Notes under the pieces: generated by a model | Database searches by the model: none | What the model was told of the DNA's origin: nothing | What the model saw: the letters and a program-made list of their open reading frames with translations, nothing else | Source of the DNA: Alphaproteobacteria bacterium | GTDB lineage: Bacteria > Pseudomonadota > Alphaproteobacteria > MPNO01 | Assembly: GCA_965248835.1 (NCBI GenBank) | Contig: CBDFLJ010000001.1 | Location: 1,312,001 to 1,376,000, forward strand | DNA: 64,000 bases | Reading direction: 5' to 3' | Shown: positions 23,595 through 30,868 of the stretch, one piece after another | How positions within the stretch are numbered: the stretch's first letter is position 1 | Layout: each line of letters begins with the position of its first letter | Translations under genes and position numbers: made by a program

Positions 23595-25328
23595 ATGACG
23601 GGGAGGCCGGATATGTCCGAACAAGGGCGCGGGCATTACGACTACATCATCATCGGCGGCGGCTCGGCCGGTTGCGTGCTGGCGAGCCGGTTGAGCGAGG
23701 CCTCGGCCGTCCGGGTGCTGCTGATCGAGGCCGGCGAGGACTTTCCGCCCGGCACCGAACCGGCCGGACTGCGCGATACCTTCGCCGGCGCCGCCCACGG
23801 CAATGACCGCTTCGTCTGGTCGGGCCTTGCCGCGACCTTCGAGCCAAAGCCGGGCAACGCTCCCGACGAGCGCCCGCGTCGGCGCTACATCCAGGGCCGG
23901 GTCATGGGCGGCGGCTCATCGGTCAACGGCATGGTCTCCAACCGCGGGCTGCCGAGCGACTACGCCGACTGGGTCGCGCGCGGCGCCGAAGGCTGGGCGT
24001 GGCAGGACGTGCTGCCCTACTTCAAGAAGCTGGAAACCGATATCGACCGCGACGGGACGCTCCACGGCGCGGACGGGCCGGTGCGGATCAGCCGCATCCC
24101 CGAGGCCCAATGGCCCGGCTTTTCCGCCGCCTTCATCGATGCCGCCGAGGCCGAGGGATTCCGCAACCTCGAAGACCAGAACGCCGCCTTCGAGGACGGT
24201 TATTTCCCGATTGCCGCCTGCACCGACGACGACCGGCGGATCTCGACCGCAACCGCCTATCTGACCCCCGAAGTCCGCGCCCGGCCAAATCTCACCATCC
24301 AGCCGCTGACGCTGGTCGAACGTCTGCTGTTCGACGGCCGCGCGGTGACCGGCGTCAAAGTGCATACCGAGGCCGGCGTCGAGGAAATCCGCGCCGGTGA
24401 GGTGGTGGTGTGTGCCGGCGCGCTCCACTCGCCGCCCCTGCTGCTGCGCTCGGGGGTGGGCCCGGCGGCCGAGCTGGCCGCGCTCGGCATCCCGGTCGTC
24501 CATGACCTGCCCGGCGTCGGCAAGCACCTGATGGAGCATCCCGGCGTCAATTTCGGGGCCACCATGAAACCCGGTGCGCGGCTGCGGGCCGGGCTGCGCC
24601 GACCGTTCTACGCCGGGCTGCGCTATTCGTCCGGGCTGGCGGGCTGTCCGGACGGCGATATGTATCTGATCCCGACGAACAAGTCGGCCTGGCATGCGGT
24701 CGGCGACCGGCTCGCGCTGATCATGCTGTGGGTCAACAAGTCCTATTCAACCGGCGAGGTCCGTCTGTCTTCGGCCGATTGGCGCGCCGAACCGGTGGTC
24801 GATTTCAACATGTGCTCGGACGAGCGCGACCTGGTCCGTCTGGTTGCGGGCACCCGGCTGATGGCCAGGCTCGCCGCCCATCCGGCCATCGCCGGGGCGG
24901 CCCATGAGGTGTTCCCGGTCAGCTATGGCGAGCGTGCGCGCCGGGTCGCGGTGTTCAGCCGCTCCAACCAGCTTCAGACCTGGATCGGCGCCCGGCTGAT
25001 GGATGCCGCGGGACCGATCCGGCGCTGGCTGTGCCGCACGCTGATCGCCGACGGCCCGACGGTCGCGGATCTGCTGGCCGACGAGCCCACACTGGTTGGC
25101 TGGGTGAAGCAGGCCGTCCTCGGCCACTGGCACGCCTCGTGCACCTGCCGCATGGGCGCGGCCGAAGATCCCGGCGCGGTGACCGATCCGGCCGGTCGGG
25201 TCCACGGGGTCGCCGGGCTCCGTGTGTGCGATGCCTCGATCATGCCGGCGGTGCCGTGCGCCAACACCAATATCCCGACGATTATGATCGGCGAGAAGAT
25301 CGCCGCTTCCATCCTGGCCGAAGCCTGA
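23595..25328 (+). CDS. GMC family oxidoreductase
   Basis: GGGSAG, GGGSSVNG, WHASCTCRMG, NTNIP; start may be 23613. Confidence 0.92.
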   Translation: MTGRPDMSEQGRGHYDYIIIGGGSAGCVLASRLSEASAVRVLLIEAGEDFPPGTEPAGLRDTFAGAAHGNDRFVWSGLAATFEPKPGNAPDERPRRRYIQGRVMGGGSSVNGMVSNRGLPSDYADWVARGAEGWAWQDVLPYFKKLETDIDRDGTLHGADGPVRISRIPEAQWPGFSAAFIDAAEAEGFRNLEDQNAAFEDGYFPIAACTDDDRRISTATAYLTPEVRARPNLTIQPLTLVERLLFDGRAVTGVKVHTEAGVEEIRAGEVVVCAGALHSPPLLLRSGVGPAAELAALGIPVVHDLPGVGKHLMEHPGVNFGATMKPGARLRAGLRRPFYAGLRYSSGLAGCPDGDMYLIPTNKSAWHAVGDRLALIMLWVNKSYSTGEVRLSSADWRAEPVVDFNMCSDERDLVRLVAGTRLMARLAAHPAIAGAAHEVFPVSYGERARRVAVFSRSNQLQTWIGARLMDAAGPIRRWLCRTLIADGPTVADLLADEPTLVGWVKQAVLGHWHASCTCRMGAAEDPGAVTDPAGRVHGVAGLRVCDASIMPAVPCANTNIPTIMIGEKIAASILAEA

Positions 25329-25347
25329 GCGCAGACGGAGAAAGCCG

Positions 25348-26193
25348 ATGAAGCTGATCAGCTACCGCCACCAGGGACGGGAAAGCTTCGGCGTCGTCAG
25401 GGACGGCGGGATCGTCGACATGACGGCGCGGCTGGACGGCGACTTCGCCGCGCTCAAGGACGCGATCGCCGGTCTCGGCCTGTCGCGGATCGAGGCGGCG
25501 GCAAAGGCCGCACCCGATATCGGCCTCGACGACGTCGAATGCATGTTCCCGATCACGACCCCGGAAAAGATCTTCTGCATCGGGCGCAACTACCGCGCCT
25601 ATCACGAGGTGCTGGAGGACGGCGGCCCGGAATGGCCGAGTGTTTTCGCCCGCTTCGCCTCCAGCTTCGCGGCCCACGGCGAGCCGATCCTCAAGCCCGC
25701 GGCTTCCGAGGAGCTCGACTTCGAGGGCGAGCTCGGCGCGATCATCGGCAAGCCCGGCCGCCATATCCCGAAAGAAGCCGCCTTCGACTACATCGCCGGC
25801 TATACCATCATCAACGAGGGCTCGGTCCGCGAATGGCAGCTTCGCGGTACCCAGAACTGCCCCGGCAAGAACTTCTATCGTTCCGGTGCGATCGGGCCGT
25901 GGATGGTCACCGCCGACGAGATCGCCGATACCACGGCACTCAGGATCATCACCCGGGTCGACGGCGAGGTCCGCCAGGACGGCGGCACCGACATGATGAT
26001 CTTCGACATCCCCTATCTGATCGCCCATATCTCCACCTTCACCTGGCTCGAACCCGGCGACATGATCGCGACCGGCAGCCCCGGCGGCTCGGCCATCGAG
26101 GATGACGAGCCGCGCTGGCTCCGCGCGGGCCAGGAGATCGCAGTCGAGATCGCGCCCATCGGCACGCTGAGGAACCCGATCCGCGACGAATAG
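25348..26193 (+). CDS. Fumarylacetoacetate hydrolase family protein
   Basis: CIGRNY, LDFEGEL, GKNF, GDMIATGSP. Confidence 0.92.
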   Translation: MKLISYRHQGRESFGVVRDGGIVDMTARLDGDFAALKDAIAGLGLSRIEAAAKAAPDIGLDDVECMFPITTPEKIFCIGRNYRAYHEVLEDGGPEWPSVFARFASSFAAHGEPILKPAASEELDFEGELGAIIGKPGRHIPKEAAFDYIAGYTIINEGSVREWQLRGTQNCPGKNFYRSGAIGPWMVTADEIADTTALRIITRVDGEVRQDGGTDMMIFDIPYLIAHISTFTWLEPGDMIATGSPGGSAIEDDEPRWLRAGQEIAVEIAPIGTLRNPIRDE

Positions 26194-26203
26194 AGGCGGC
26201 ACG

Positions 26204-27226
26204 ATGTTCCTCAAGGATTGCTGGTATGTCGCGGCGTGGGACCACGAGGTCGCCGAGACGCCGCTCGCCCGGACGATCCTGGGCGAACCTGTGGTGCTGT
26301 ATCGCGCGCCCGACGGGACCGCGCTCGCGCTCGAAGACCGGTGCTGCCACCGCGCCCTGCCGCTTTCCCTGGGCACGCAAGTCGGCGATGGGCTGCAATG
26401 CGCCTATCACGGGCTTACCTTCGATCGTACCGGGGCGTGCGTCGCGGTGCCGGGACAGACGCGGGTCCCGCCCGGTGCCGGAGTCCGCGCCTATCCGCTG
26501 GTCGAGCGCTGGCGCTGGCTGTGGATCTGGATGGGCGATCTCGGCCGCGCCGATCCCGCCTTGATTCCGAACTGGTGGTGGCTCGATCATCCGGACTGGG
26601 AACTGGTCAAGGGCAAGCACCTCCACATCGCCTGCCATTACGAGCTGATCACCGACAACCTGCTCGACCTGTCGCATCTGGCCTATGTGCATCTGGCGAC
26701 CATCGGCACCGGCTCGATCACCGCGTTCCCCATCACCACCGAGCGCGAGGACGATCTGGTGCGCATGACGCGCTGGATCCTCGACCGGCCGCCGCCGCCG
26801 CTGTTCAAGACCGTCGGCGGCTTCGAGGGCACCGTCGACCGCTGGCAGATCGTCGAGACCCGCGCGCCATGCCATACGCTCATCTATGCCGGCGCCATCG
26901 CCGCCGGGACCATCGATCCCGTTCGGGGCGAGCCGGCCGGCGGCATCCACATCCGCAACGTCAACGCACCGACGCCGGAGACCGAGACCTCGACCTTCTA
27001 TTTCTACGGCCACGCGCGCGACTTCGCGGTGGGCGAGGAGGCGGTCTCGGCGACCATGTTCGAGCAGTTCGCCAGGACGTTCGACGAGGATGTCGAGATC
27101 CTCGAGGCACAGCAGGCCTCGCTTGTGCGCGACCCCGAAAGACCGCTCATCGACATCAACGTCGATGCACCGGGGCTGGCCGCACGCCGCATGCTGCGGG
27201 CGCGCCTCGAAGCCGAGCGCGGCTAA
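26204..27226 (+). CDS. Rieske oxygenase alpha subunit (VanA/O-demethylase-like)
   Basis: CCH..CAYHG Rieske motif; DNLLDLSH..VH mononuclear Fe motif; EDVEILEAQQ. Confidence 0.9.
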   Translation: MFLKDCWYVAAWDHEVAETPLARTILGEPVVLYRAPDGTALALEDRCCHRALPLSLGTQVGDGLQCAYHGLTFDRTGACVAVPGQTRVPPGAGVRAYPLVERWRWLWIWMGDLGRADPALIPNWWWLDHPDWELVKGKHLHIACHYELITDNLLDLSHLAYVHLATIGTGSITAFPITTEREDDLVRMTRWILDRPPPPLFKTVGGFEGTVDRWQIVETRAPCHTLIYAGAIAAGTIDPVRGEPAGGIHIRNVNAPTPETETSTFYFYGHARDFAVGEEAVSATMFEQFARTFDEDVEILEAQQASLVRDPERPLIDINVDAPGLAARRMLRARLEAERG

Positions 27227-27283
27227 AGCCTGTTCCGAACAAGCGCGAAGAGCCAATGATTTTCACTATGGAAGATTAAACGT

Positions 27284-27313
27284 CTTGACATGGCTCGGCG
27301 GCCTGTGCACGAT
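27284..27313 (+). promoter_or_regulatory. Sigma70-like promoter
   Basis: CTTGACA-N17-CACGAT; predicted start ~27319-27320. Confidence 0.6.
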
Positions 27314-27318
27314 AGGTT

Positions 27319-27602
27319 GACCGGGCCGTTGCGACCCGCGCGGCGGTCCGGGAGCGAAATCGGCTGGGAGGGTGCGACGCACATGGATCCGCCTGACGAG
27401 TTGCGCAGGCCCCGCGGCCCAGCGGGGCCACGGCCCGGCTGAGAGCTCGGTCCCGAGCCGGAAGGGCCGGTAAGCGACATAGATCGTCTCTCCACGGGTG
27501 AGCGGTGCGTGGGCCTGTACCGTGTCCGTGATGAAACGTCCGTCGAGCACGTCGGACGACGGCCCAAGAGGCCAATCAAAAGTGATCGACGAGCGGTCGG
27601 TC
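27319..27602 (+). ncRNA. Putative large structured ncRNA of unknown family (~285 nt)
   Basis: 5'/3' ends pair, at least 6 hairpins, complementary loops GGCCCA/TGGGCC, own promoter and terminator, no credible ORF. Confidence 0.65.
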
Positions 27603-27606
27603 CCGC

Positions 27607-27636
27607 ACCCCGCCGGCATCAAGCCGGCGGGGTTTC
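27607..27636 (+). terminator. Intrinsic terminator-like hairpin
   Basis: ACCCCGCCGGC-ATCAA-GCCGGCGGGGT followed by a short T run. Confidence 0.65.
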
Positions 27637-27709
27637 GCGTCCCGGCGAATCGCCGCGCGGCGTCACTGCCGATCTGCGCTTCGCTTCGCCCCGCGTGACG
27701 GGGCGGCGG

Positions 27710-28555
27710 TCAGGATCGGTTGAGGGTGTCCAGAAACTCCGCCACCACGGCGGCGGTCTCGGCCGGCTTTTCGACGAACGGAATGTGGCCGCCGTCGGGG
27801 ATCTCCGCGTAGCGCGCGTCGGGGACCGCATCGGCGATCTTTCGTGAGAACGAGGCCGGGATAAAGTCGTCGTTGTCTCCGGTCACGACCAGGGTCGGGG
27901 TACGCACCGCGCGCAGCCGTTCGGTATAGAGCGGCTCGGGCGCTTGACCGGGCAACCGGCCGCCCCAGCGGAGGATCGAATCGAGGAAGGCGGTGTAGAG
28001 TTCGGGCGAATTCGCGAGCACGCCTTCCTGGTTCGCCCGCATGATGGCGAGCCCTTCCTCGGTCTCCATGAACGCGCGGGTCATGGTCGACAGGCCCATG
28101 AAATCGGCCAGCTCCTCGCCCATGCCGAGCTTGGCGATCAGCTTCTTGCGCAGCGAGAAATTCATCTCCATCGCCCGGTCGAGCTCGGAGAACCCGCCGA
28201 TCACGATCATCCCGCGCACCAGGTCCGGGTGGCGGACGGCCATCGCCTGGGCGACGCATCCGCCGAGCGAGGAGCCCAGCACGTCGACGCTGTCCCAACC
28301 GAGGCGGCGGGCCAGCGCTGCGAAGTCATCGGCCCACAGCTCGGCCGTGTAGGTGACGGTCTCCGGATCGTCCTTGCGCGACTGGCCGACGCCGCGCGGA
28401 TCGGTCAGCACCGTCGCCGCATGGCCGCGCAGCAGCGGCTCGCCCAGCCGGTAGTAGCGGTGGTCGAGCCCGAGACCCGGGAACAGCATCAGCGGATGGC
28501 CCGCGCCCTGGACCTGGTACCAGAGCCTGGTGCCATTGACCTCTTCGTATGCCAT
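27710..28555 (-). CDS. Alpha/beta hydrolase
   Basis: DPRGVGQS, GSSLGG nucleophile elbow, GGHIPF. Confidence 0.9.
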   Translation of the reverse strand: MAYEEVNGTRLWYQVQGAGHPLMLFPGLGLDHRYYRLGEPLLRGHAATVLTDPRGVGQSRKDDPETVTYTAELWADDFAALARRLGWDSVDVLGSSLGGCVAQAMAVRHPDLVRGMIVIGGFSELDRAMEMNFSLRKKLIAKLGMGEELADFMGLSTMTRAFMETEEGLAIMRANQEGVLANSPELYTAFLDSILRWGGRLPGQAPEPLYTERLRAVRTPTLVVTGDNDDFIPASFSRKIADAVPDARYAEIPDGGHIPFVEKPAETAAVVAEFLDTLNRS

Positions 28556-28580
28556 GGCGGTCCCGTCTCCCGTAAGGCGT

Positions 28581-29219
28581 TCAGTGCGTAGCCGCAGCGG
28601 CCAGGATCTTGATACCCAGCGGTGCGGACTTGCCGCCGTTGGTCGGCGAGGTGTCCGCTGGACAGGCCGAAATCGCGGCCAGCACGTCCATCTCGGCCAA
28701 CAGGTCGATATGGTCGTCCGGCCCTACCGCGGTCGGCAGGATGCGAAAGCTGCCCTGCGCGTCGAGCTCGACATTCATGAAGACGTTGAAGACGTCCATC
28801 ACCTCATCGCCGCTCAGCCCGAAGGGGGCGAGCGCCTCGCTGAGGTTCTCCTGGCACGAGCGGTGGTCGGTGAGGTTGTCGCGGCGCTCGTACAGCCTGG
28901 TCGAGCAGCGCCCGCCCATGTTGCCCCAGTGGTTGGCGCAGGTATCTGCAACCACCGTCAGCATCACGTTCTCGCGCGGCGGTTTGGAGTAGAAATGCTT
29001 GAAGGACTTCGCCGTCCCGGTGCCGCAGATAACGTTGGTCGCCCAGCTCTGGCCGACATGGAACCATTCGCGGTGGTCGTTGGCGTTGTAGAAGACGCAA
29101 TCGCCGACCTGTCCGCCGGCGACCTGATGGATGCGCAGGATCGTACCCTTCTCGACCACCAGCGCCCGTCCCTGGCGCGCAGGGATGACGAACTCGGACA
29201 GGACCGTGCCCGCTTCCAT
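28581..29219 (-). CDS. Urea carboxylase-associated (DUF1989) protein
   Basis: GGQVGD, RSCQENL, FNVFMNV, AISACP. Confidence 0.85.
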   Translation of the reverse strand: MEAGTVLSEFVIPARQGRALVVEKGTILRIHQVAGGQVGDCVFYNANDHREWFHVGQSWATNVICGTGTAKSFKHFYSKPPRENVMLTVVADTCANHWGNMGGRCSTRLYERRDNLTDHRSCQENLSEALAPFGLSGDEVMDVFNVFMNVELDAQGSFRILPTAVGPDDHIDLLAEMDVLAAISACPADTSPTNGGKSAPLGIKILAAAATH

Positions 29220-29222
29220 CGT

Positions 29223-29624
29223 CTAGTCCTTGCGCTTGATCGTCCACGGGTGCTCGGAGACGTCGAAGACGACGCCGTCGGGGTCCTTGAACTTGGTCTC
29301 GGCCTCGACGCCCGGGTAGTCGCCGGGAAGCTCCATGAAGAACGTCCCGCCGGCCGATGCGATCCGCGCGGCGGTGGCGTCCTTGTCCTCGACCACCATG
29401 CCGAAATGGTGCAGCCCCGCCCAGTCGGGGCCGTTGACCCCCCCTATGGTCCCTTCGGGGAAGTGCAGCAGCGTCAGGTTCATCAGCCCGTCAGACAGCA
29501 TGATCGCATTGCCGATCGGGCTTTCGGCCTCGGCAACGCGGTCGAGCCCGAAGACGTTTTCGTAAAAGACGGCAGACTTTTCGAGGTCGGGCACCTGCAT
29601 CGCGATGTGGCGCAGCTTGGCCAT
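29223..29624 (-). CDS. VOC/glyoxalase family protein
   Basis: KLRHIA, GLHHFG, KDPDGVVFD. Confidence 0.88.
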   Translation of the reverse strand: MAKLRHIAMQVPDLEKSAVFYENVFGLDRVAEAESPIGNAIMLSDGLMNLTLLHFPEGTIGGVNGPDWAGLHHFGMVVEDKDATAARIASAGGTFFMELPGDYPGVEAETKFKDPDGVVFDVSEHPWTIKRKD

Positions 29625-29701
29625 GGTCCGGCTCCCAAAGGATCGGCTTTGATGCCATTGTGACCGCGCCAATCGAGCCTGTCCATCGAAGGCGCAAGAC
29701 G

Positions 29702-30868
29702 GTGCGAATTCTCGAAATCAGGGAAAAGACCATCCCGGTCGCGGCTGCGATGAGCAATGCCGCGATCGGCTTCGACGAGATGACCGCATCGGCGGTCGCG
29801 GTCTTCACCGATGCGGTCGTCGGCGGTGCGCGCGTTATCGGCTACGGCCTGGACTCGATCGGCCGCTACGGCCATGGCGGACTGTTGCGCGAGCGTTTCA
29901 TCCCGCGGCTGATGACCGCCGAAGAGGCCGAGATCTGCGATCCGGCCACCGGGATCATCGATCCGATGCGCTGCTGGCCGATCATGATGACCAATGAGAA
30001 GCAGGGCGGCCACGGCGAGCGGTCAGCGGCCGTGGGCGTGCTCGACGCCGCGCTCTGGGACGCCGCCGCCAAGGCCGCCGGCCTGCCGCTCCATGGGCTG
30101 CTCGCCGAGCGCTTCAACGGCGGCCGCAACGCCGAGTCGATCGCGGTCTATGCGGCGGGCGGCCACTACCGCCCTGACGGCGGCAACGAAGCTCTGGCGG
30201 CGGAGGTCCGCCGCTACGCCGGCCTCGGCTACCGAACGGTCAAGATCAAGATCGGCGCCGCACCGCTGGCCGCGGACCGCGTCCGCATCGAGGCCGCGCT
30301 CGCCGCGCTGCCGCCGGGCGGGCGGCTCGCGGTCGATGCCAATGCGGTCTTCGACCGCGAAACCGCGCTCGCCTGGGCCGCGGCGCTTGCCGATTACGAC
30401 CTTGCGTGGCTGGAGGAGCCCGGCGACCCGCTCGATTTCGCGCTAATGGAGGCCCTGGCCGCGTCCTATCCGGGGCCGTTGGCGACTGGCGAGAACCTGT
30501 TCTCGGCCGCGGACGCACGCAACCTCGTGCGCTACGCCGGGATGCGGCCCGACCGGGATCTGCTCCAGTTCGACGTCTCGTTGAGCTACGGCATCGCCGA
30601 ATATCTGCGCATCGTCGCGGTCCTCGAGGCCGCCGGCTGGCCGCGGACGCGGCTGGTCCCGCACGCCGGGCACCTGTTCGCGGCCAACGTCGTCGCCGGG
30701 CTCGGACTCGGCGGCCATGAGACGGCGCCCGACCCGGGCCTGGTCTTCGGCGGTTTCCCCGACGGCTGGCGCCTGGCCGACGGCCGGCTGAGCCTGGACG
30801 ACGCGCCCGGCGTCGGCTTCGAAGCCAAGGCCAACACCTTCGCGATCCTGGAGGCGCTCGCGCCGTAA
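29702..30868 (+). CDS. Mandelate racemase/enolase family (D-tartrate dehydratase-like subgroup)
   Basis: GGHGERS, KIKIG, VDAN, EEP, TGENLFS. Confidence 0.85.
   Translation: MRILEIREKTIPVAAAMSNAAIGFDEMTASAVAVFTDAVVGGARVIGYGLDSIGRYGHGGLLRERFIPRLMTAEEAEICDPATGIIDPMRCWPIMMTNEKQGGHGERSAAVGVLDAALWDAAAKAAGLPLHGLLAERFNGGRNAESIAVYAAGGHYRPDGGNEALAAEVRRYAGLGYRTVKIKIGAAPLAADRVRIEAALAALPPGGRLAVDANAVFDRETALAWAAALADYDLAWLEEPGDPLDFALMEALAASYPGPLATGENLFSAADARNLVRYAGMRPDRDLLQFDVSLSYGIAEYLRIVAVLEAAGWPRTRLVPHAGHLFAANVVAGLGLGGHETAPDPGLVFGGFPDGWRLADGRLSLDDAPGVGFEAKANTFAILEALAP

Follow-up and report, generated by a model that had tools for sequence, protein, structure and literature searches.

A candidate regulatory RNA family of two alphaproteobacterial orders with a putative Met-X-Pro-Pro mini-ORF

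Here we describe a small RNA gene predicted in a 64,000-nt stretch of alphaproteobacterial DNA (GTDB lineage MPNO01; GenBank assembly GCA_965248835.1, contig CBDFLJ010000001.1, positions 1,312,001 to 1,376,000 of the forward strand). This whole stretch is called the window, and positions are given in its coordinates. The gene lies in an intergenic gap of 483 nt (27227-27709) between two convergent open reading frames (ORFs). The signals in this gap are best explained by a predicted RNA gene of ~317 nt on the + strand, ~27320-27636. On comparative grounds we regard it as very probable that this is a genuine RNA gene. Its best-kept part looks like a tiny translated frame starting Met-X-Pro-Pro and not like a ribozyme core. 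The reading that we prefer, and to which we give about an even chance, is a regulatory small RNA (sRNA) family without Rfam match that carries a translated, leader-type Pro-Pro mini-ORF. Taken by itself, translation of the frame seems fairly probable to us.

The RNA is single-copy in its own genome. Among 61 related genomes, BLAST found it at full length and 83% identity in the same genus (G002) and as a partial match of 87 nt in another genus (G005); a 22-nt match in G040 was discarded as chance. A pattern scan of one genome per species returned 94 stretches, two of which are homologues (public records matching G002 and G005). The others were dismissed as chance or coding matches, including a conserved Sphingomonas gene. 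Six homologous contigs came from a metagenome pattern scan: L177, L190, L107, L115 and the identical pair L110/L149. A first covariance model that included the promoter (R1) was too specific and placed a true homologue, G008, at E 0.13 beside chance hairpins. The model R2 covers the core and was made from eight sequences with the structure supplied by hand. Within the order it detected the RNA, always as one copy, in 11/78 genomes from all five families, and it detected one copy in each of four genomes of a second order (4/4). In a class-wide sample one of 150 other families was positive, namely the second order, and none of the 149 others; a phylum-wide sample (0/150 other genomes) and plasmid and phage collections gave no match. 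In total, 15 genomes from two small alphaproteobacterial orders carry the RNA, each in a single copy, and it is also present on metagenome contigs; its carriers are little-known soil and marine alphaproteobacteria. Counts out of 17 refer to the distinct sequences that are left after dropping L198 (equivalent to L110), L206 (near-identical to L107), L149 (identical to L110) and L115 (identical to L102).

The part of the RNA that is conserved throughout reads like a translation start. GGGAGGG (27366-27372) contains the Shine-Dalgarno-like GGAGG (27367-27371), and GGAGG is present in all 17 homologues. The mini-ORF that follows (27383-27442, + strand) has its AUG at 27383-27385, 19 codons (MDPPDELRRPRGPAGPRPG), two adjacent proline codons (CCG CCU, 27389-27394) and the stop codon UGA at 27440-27442. 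An AUG follows GGAGG after 9-12 variable nt in 16/17 homologues; in the seventeenth, G005, this AUG is lost, and an in-frame AUG is found two codons further upstream. The codon after the AUG is GAN or ACN (Asp or Glu in 14/17, Thr in 3/17). The next two are CCR CCN, i.e. Pro-Pro, in 16/17 and Pro-Leu in L177, and the peptide start M-[D/E/T]-P-P is likewise found in 16/17. In 8 of the 16 Pro-Pro frames the residue after Pro-Pro is Asp or Gly. At the level of sequence, short ORF, ribosome-binding site and regulatory codons of a putative leader peptide are thus all present, and the invariant nucleotides are concentrated in GGAGG-AUG-CCRCC rather than in junctions. An earlier note on this DNA had seen no credible ORF in the gap. 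For long ORFs this holds: those across the gap are driven by GC content and are not kept in the relatives L177 and L002, and a Pfam match was obtained for 0/7 ORFs overlapping 27227-27709. The conserved 19-codon frame, however, was overlooked.

Inside the mini-ORF lies the hairpin P3 (GGCCCCGC/GCGGGGCC, 27408-27429, + strand) of 8 base pairs (bp) with a 6-nt loop. In 9/17 homologues the AUG frame meets its first stop 0-16 nt past this hairpin, against 0/17 in each of the frames +1 and +2. These stops include UGA, UAA and UAG. They lie 5, 6, 7, 10 or 13 nt past P3 as the distance from AUG to P3 changes between 45, 46 and 47 nt, and the frame is kept. This frame-specific stop is the strongest single result in favour of a frame that would be read by ribosomes. 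P3 itself covaries. In an alignment of 15 sequences ~96% of its cells are paired and three pairs show compensatory changes; C-G is replaced by U-A three times, and one pair occurs with five pair types. The overall covariation score was 0.158, with a shuffle mean of 0.084, and was reached by 0/500 shuffles, and slid controls remained at or below 0.077. Homologue search followed by covariation had been proposed as a check in the earlier note, and at P3 such a comparison did show compensatory changes.

P3 is followed by P4 (27431-27469, + strand), an irregular hairpin of the minimum free energy (MFE) fold in which CGGCCC/GGGCCG encloses GCUCG/CGAGC. Its 5' strand holds the stop of the mini-ORF. 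A hairpin of differing sequence begins no more than 6 nt past the end of P3 in 14/15 homologues; hairpins at the P4 position have z scores from -0.10 to -5.16, and 7/15 beat at least 95% of shuffles. Behind P4 there is a linker with GCGACAUAG (27470-27492, + strand), which is the window's variant of (C)GACAAYC, an A/C-rich motif located behind P4 in other homologues. GACAA was found 20-110 nt past the modelled core in 9/17 homologues compared with 13/596 background windows, the linker variants in the window and G002 being GACAU and UACAG. This unpaired motif is the only candidate for a base-pairing seed.

These features suggest how translation might act on the RNA. The Shine-Dalgarno sequence would be masked in part because it pairs with the Pro-Pro codons; ribosomes would load there and slow at the di-proline. 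According to passages of PMC4176338, EF-P relieves stalling at XPPZ motifs, and Asp ahead of the prolines, or Asp or Gly behind them, makes the stalling stronger. A ribosome held at codons 3-4 would leave P3 and P4 folded, whereas a ribosome running to the stop inside P4 would melt them. The state of P3 and P4 would set the fold, the stability or the 3' extension of the downstream part, which would then act in trans via its single-stranded linker or by protein binding. Past its first four residues the peptide would probably be irrelevant. P3 and P4 overlap the mini-ORF, and a conserved alternative pairing of the terminator/antiterminator type was not identified among the homologues. The most far-reaching form of this proposal is a free-standing 'translation-gated' riboregulator, an sRNA whose activity or stability is set by the speed of ribosome passage over the Met-X-Pro-Pro mini-ORF; this we consider rather unlikely. 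Two other ideas about translation were dropped. A mimic of another gene's translation start was abandoned since, outside this locus, the genome has no match to the pattern GGAGG-N4-13-ATGGANCCNCC and no second copy of the start region. A second ORF from an AUG in 27531-27536, common to the window, G002 and L177, is without Shine-Dalgarno sequence and absent from all other homologues.

A number of observations weigh against a translated frame and against the mechanism outlined above. All evidence for transcription and translation is comparative. The tests of the mechanism, i.e. EF-P gene content, a second copy of the start region and proline transporters, gave no support. One match to the EF-P C-domain is present in each of 74/78 genomes, with or without the RNA, so that EF-P content and the RNA do not co-vary. 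A link to proline transport was considered for MFS genes located downstream on the same strand in G062 and G025 and was given up, as no proline-related or specific family was matched. The RNA was not found in 12/12 near-complete genomes of the largest sister genus in the family and is therefore dispensable. Past residue 4 the peptides are unrelated, except for a G-P-R..A-G-P stretch which is shared because the covarying P3 stem imposes it, a constraint at the RNA level. The frames are 7-36 codons long, nine of them 17-20 codons, and that of G005 has 82 codons and runs beyond the RNA's own terminator. The spacing of 9-12 nt between GGAGG and AUG exceeds the usual optimum. The stop might belong to an internal loop of P4 of the type U-purine-purine, and 3/4 such triplets are stops. 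One of the nine stops (G020) is located beside an inserted transposase gene, which leaves 8/16 clean cases. Finally, the 17 sequences are related, with ~7 independent lineages among the stop-bearers, so that the counts overstate significance.

Some of these points lend weight to the main rival, a purely non-coding trans-acting sRNA. Its mode of action would be base pairing, for which the A/C-rich linker could serve, or the sequestration of a protein, for instance Hfq. GGAGG, AUG and CCRCC would be kept as a hairpin, P2, or as a protein- or RNA-binding site, with the frame left unread. We judge this explanation unlikely, though it has much in its favour. Pairing of GGAGG with CCRCC is possible if a purine-purine mismatch is allowed, and the putative P2 is drawn by RNAalifold and by some folds. 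The variable third positions of the Pro codons coincide with the P2 mismatch and helix end, so that the hairpin fits them too, and the Pro-to-Leu change of L177 keeps a G-U pair with the G-rich tract; both also count against the coding reading. The unconserved peptide, the lack of a stop in the RNA of G005, the long GGAGG-AUG spacing and the many independent hairpins with their unpaired, GACAA-containing linker would all suit a non-coding sRNA. P2 itself speaks against it. Across two orders its four core G-C pairs are invariant and show no covariation, although the adjacent P3 covaries, and at least half of the sequences leave the flanking pairs unpaired. The probability of the P2 register exceeds 0.5 in 4/17 local folds only and has a median of 0 in full-length ensembles. 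As the pairs never covary and the register is poorly predicted, a function at the sequence level explains the conservation better than a helix. Moreover, the AUG is invariant within a variable loop and its loss in G005 is compensated in frame, and stops are enriched in the AUG frame only.

Putative transcription signals are present at both ends of the predicted gene. The promoter-like site (27285-27313, + strand) comprises a -35 box TTGACA (27285-27290; direct reading gives CTTGACA at 27284-27290), a spacer of 17 nt and a -10-like CACGAT (27308-27313), with a predicted start at ~27320. The intrinsic-terminator-like hairpin (27607-27636, + strand; the hairpin itself 27607-27633) has 11 bp and the loop AUCAA and is followed by UUUC. 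An E. coli-type consensus scan of 26900-28000 reported no promoter-like site and did not list the terminator hairpin (27607-27635), which has only three U. As the scan flagged neither, the support for both comes from the homologues. A TTGAC box is located 30-170 nt upstream of GGAGG in 11/17 homologues compared with 41/477 background windows (8.6%), and by inspection six homologues have TTGAC[A/T]-N17-CA..nT in common, as in the window. The terminator stem is near-identical in G002 and G008, with a longer U tract in G008. In most homologues a GC-rich + strand hairpin ending in a T-rich tail is located ~205-260 nt past the core.

The promoter boxes, helices and terminator hairpin listed in the earlier note all lie where it had placed them. 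Its proposal of a promoter and terminator belonging to the RNA is backed by these sites and by the homologues, even though the consensus scan is silent. The strand it had chosen is supported by the -35 boxes and the terminator T tails and hardly by folding energy. The + strand (27319-27636) folds at -173.2 kcal/mol (z -3.90) and the - strand at -162.9 kcal/mol (z -3.46), and 0/100 dinucleotide shuffles were as good in either case. Since both strands fold well, folding energy does not decide the strand. The structured-RNA signal in the gap is genuine and no artefact of GC content, which agrees with the shuffled control that the note had put forward. An sRNA on the minus strand with a CCCUCCC anti-Shine-Dalgarno motif was rejected on account of the -35 boxes and T tails on the + strand.

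In the window the gap is bordered by a VanA-type Rieske oxygenase ORF on the + strand, ending at 27226, and an alpha/beta-hydrolase ORF on the - strand, ending at 27710. According to Pfam annotation of the flanks the neighbours are unrelated among 11 loci examined, and in these loci the RNA holds no fixed position directly upstream of one regulated same-strand gene. The difference in neighbours supports a stand-alone RNA gene with its own promoter-like site and terminator, upstream of no conserved gene, as the note had proposed.

The RNA might instead act in cis, either as a leader or attenuator of a downstream same-strand gene or by convergent read-through as antisense into the neighbour (here the hydrolase). 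A leader-peptide-like frame followed by hairpins and a terminator would suit an attenuator, and in G005 the hairpin right after P3 is the terminator. A same-strand gene lies downstream in a few loci: the MFS transporter genes in G062 and G025 only, and a methylisocitrate-lyase-like gene in G036. By inspection, a hydrolase neighbour is common to the window and G005. A cis element is improbable nevertheless. The downstream gene is convergent in five of these differing loci (window, G002, G005, G008 and G156), the MFS proteins match no proline-related family, and strong terminators are placed ahead of the next gene.

It is very unlikely that the element has no dedicated function and consists of GC-rich intergenic DNA that folds by chance and was kept through recent common descent. 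The good folding of both strands and the patchy distribution, with no RNA found in the sister genus, would be expected in that case. Yet the element is recognisable across two orders despite unrelated flanks, and promoter box, terminator, covarying hairpin and frame-specific stop are kept. Even less speaks for an mRNA that encodes a functional small protein of 17-24 residues and has a structured 3' untranslated region. Start, Shine-Dalgarno sequence and in-frame stop position are conserved and nine frames are of suitable length, but no residue is conserved past M-x-P-P except among close kin, lengths extend from 7 to 82 codons, and the G-P-R..A-G-P stretch follows from the P3 stem. For the three peptides tested no NCBIfam family match was obtained.

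Concerning its architecture, the window RNA contains from 5' to 3' P1, a short A-rich linker, the GGGAGGG...AUG...CCGCC block (27366-27394), P3, P4, the linker, P5-P9 and the terminator. In the MFE fold the helices are local and in series and form a chain of hairpins without a closed multi-junction fold. The 5'-terminal hairpin P1 (27321-27351, + strand) has 13 bp and the loop ACCCG in the MFE fold. Among the window, G002 and L177, 92.3% of its cells are paired, with one-sided changes at six pairs. A 5' hairpin of unrelated sequence is predicted ahead of the core in all 15 homologues, and 4/15 beat at least 95% of shuffles. It had been claimed in the earlier note that the ends, GACCGGGCCGTT at 27319-27330 and AGCGGTCGGTC at 27592-27602, pair to close the molecule. 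This was not borne out: 80.6% of cells are paired with one compensatory pair, which is not above shuffles. The local helices P1 and P9, both chosen by the MFE fold, account for the same bases, and P1 persists in G005, which has no 3' partner strand.

The 3' helices (all + strand) are specific to the subfamily of window, G002 and L177. P5 (CACGGG..GCGGUGCG/UGUACCGU..CCGUG, 27493-27530, loop UGGGCC) shows compensatory change at three pairs among these sequences. In P6 (CGUCCG..CGGACG, 27537-27558) 7/8 pairs are invariant in the three, so that covariation is uninformative. P7 (GGCC-CAAGA-GGCC, 27561-27573) has a C-G to U-A change in G002 and L177; similar GGCC-(R)AGAG-GCC hairpins ahead of the terminator were seen by inspection in G062, G156, G036 and G008. 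P8 (AUCA/UGAU, 27575-27586) is paired in 12/12 cells with one compensatory pair, and P9 (GAUCGAC/GUCGGUC, 27584-27602) in 95.2% of cells with one one-sided change. P8 and P9 have three bases in common and are mutually exclusive; different MFE folds pick either. Both are located far downstream of the mini-ORF. Taken together, the 3' helices are paired in 93.9% of 132 cells in the two closest relatives, with compensatory changes at four pairs, compared with at most 47% and no compensatory pair for slid controls. The 3' helices listed in the note, AUCA/UGAU included, are thereby confirmed for these relatives.

Beyond this subfamily the 3' half is diverged and cannot be aligned across families, and in G005 it is missing. 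The RNA of G005 (L003 1436-1612) is a short form of ~150 nt in which P1, the GGAGG-AUG-Pro-Pro block and P3 are kept. A strong terminator hairpin is located directly after P3, at the position of P4, and the frame has no stop ahead of it. Since the RNA ends there, the 3' half is dispensable in that genus. The RNA copy of G020 (L201 1576-1792) is truncated just past P3. From 1588 up to the end of the contig, the opposite strand codes for the C-terminal part of a DDE transposase (PF01609, PF13586), and an insertion sequence appears to have entered the RNA gene. A new class of large catalytic or scaffold RNA with a global fold, which was the note's suggestion and would be in line with the low folding energy, the many consecutive helices held in close relatives and the lack of an Rfam match, is the least probable explanation of all, because the helices are local and serial, the sole proposed long-range helix does not exceed its controls and has better local hairpins as competitors, the 3' half is not retained, conservation resides in the ribosome-binding-site-like stretch and one hairpin and not in junctions, and the minus strand folds nearly as well.

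No known RNA family was recognised at the locus. At the gathering thresholds of Rfam 15 (4227 families), nothing in the window was matched. When the filters were relaxed for 27150-27750, only four matches appeared, with E 5.9-8.7 and 13-17 bits, as compared with thresholds of 44-70 bits. ARAGORN found no tRNA or tmRNA in the window. The genome's own tmRNA (two-piece alphaproteobacterial, RF01849, 263 bits) is on contig 2, and 6S RNA (RF00013) and RNase P RNA (RF00010) score above cut-offs elsewhere in the same genome and do not match at the locus. This agrees with the note, which had seen no hallmarks of RNase P or tmRNA, had asked for a covariance-model search of Rfam and had taken the RNA for undescribed. 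Such an RNA is not described in the full-text literature searched, including passages of PMC11109978; motif lists given only in supplements were outside its scope. Likewise, no junction or pseudoknot core with covarying long-range pairs, as in ribozymes or GOLLD/ROOL/OLE-like RNAs, was found in this family.

The closest precedent in concept is mgtL, a proline-codon leader ORF in the Salmonella mgtA leader. According to PMC6460261, deletion of efp raises mgtA mRNA through the mgtL proline codons. Like the mini-ORF of our element, mgtL is a short ORF whose proline codons come early and which lies within alternative RNA structure; how fast ribosomes pass the prolines depends on EF-P and alters what becomes of the RNA, as is proposed here. 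In contrast, mgtL acts in cis and has a fixed place ahead of mgtA in enterobacteria. The alphaproteobacterial element has its own predicted terminator, no conserved downstream gene, adjacent Pro-Pro codons 3-4 and no sequence or Rfam similarity to mgtL. A leader-ORF RNA acting in trans within the Alphaproteobacteria is rnTrpL/peTrpL of Sinorhizobium meliloti, as reported in parts of PMC7968998 and bioRxiv 10.1101/606483. Like rnTrpL/peTrpL, SgrS/SgrT and SR1/SR1P, the element would be a transcript of sRNA size (here predicted) with a ribosome-binding site and a small ORF. The peptides of these RNAs are conserved and functional, whereas the homologues of our element share only M-[D/E/T]-P-P in frames of 7-82 codons and thus lack the small protein conserved in sequence that marks a dual-function sRNA. 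Furthermore, rnTrpL arises from an attenuator upstream of trpE(G), and the gene described here stands alone.

With Hfq-type and protein-sponge sRNAs the element has in common an independent promoter and intrinsic terminator, both predicted here, a chain of stem-loops and an A/C-rich single-stranded stretch, as well as a lineage-restricted occurrence without fixed neighbours. At ~317 nt it is long for a base-pairing sRNA, and its best-conserved block resembles translation initiation and not a seed. RNA thermometers (ROSE, fourU) have a Shine-Dalgarno sequence that pairs imperfectly, with an internal mismatch, to a nearby pyrimidine-rich stretch, and in this respect they are similar. They are located, however, in the 5' untranslated region of a full-length heat-shock or virulence gene, while the masked site of the element would serve the mini-ORF only. 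The masking register is poorly predicted (4/17), and no Rfam thermometer family matches.

Several further observations concern the surroundings of the RNA gene and the searches. By Pfam, the region 23595-30868 looks like an aromatic-acid catabolic cluster with a GMC oxidoreductase, an FAA-hydrolase-family protein, the VanA-type Rieske oxygenase, the alpha/beta hydrolase and an MR/MLE enolase-superfamily protein; for the ORF at 28530-29663 no Pfam match was obtained. Between the RNA terminator and the hydrolase stop codon there is a further GC-rich hairpin (CGCCCCG-CGTGA-CGGGGCG, 27687-27705), which has no T tail on either strand and may belong to the 3' end of the hydrolase gene on the minus strand. 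The source assembly (G000; 4.89 Mb, 2 contigs) is 100% complete with 9.51% contamination, which is above that of every RNA-bearing relative. The first search pattern also matches a conserved stretch in Sphingomonas (L005, L014, L024, L027, L028 and ~15 further loci); conservation of its flanks across species suggests a coding region unrelated to the RNA. Three metagenome contigs, L108, L133 and L144, have a common GGGAGGGTGCG match followed by direct repeats of ~25 nt (..ACAAAATGGAACCATGATGCGTT..) and are unrelated to the RNA family.

Even as an ordinary non-coding sRNA, the element would represent a well-delimited new family with promoter, terminator, covarying hairpin and 17 distinct sequences. 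If the reading preferred here is right, proline-codon pausing in a leader ORF and a trans-acting sRNA are joined in one molecule, an arrangement that was not found in the full-text literature searched. It would offer a simple, testable RNA whose regulatory state depends on translation. Should the RNA be a translation-gated riboregulator, it would report EF-P activity or prolyl-tRNA supply to targets in trans. It would then be a leader-peptide sensor uncoupled from any downstream gene.

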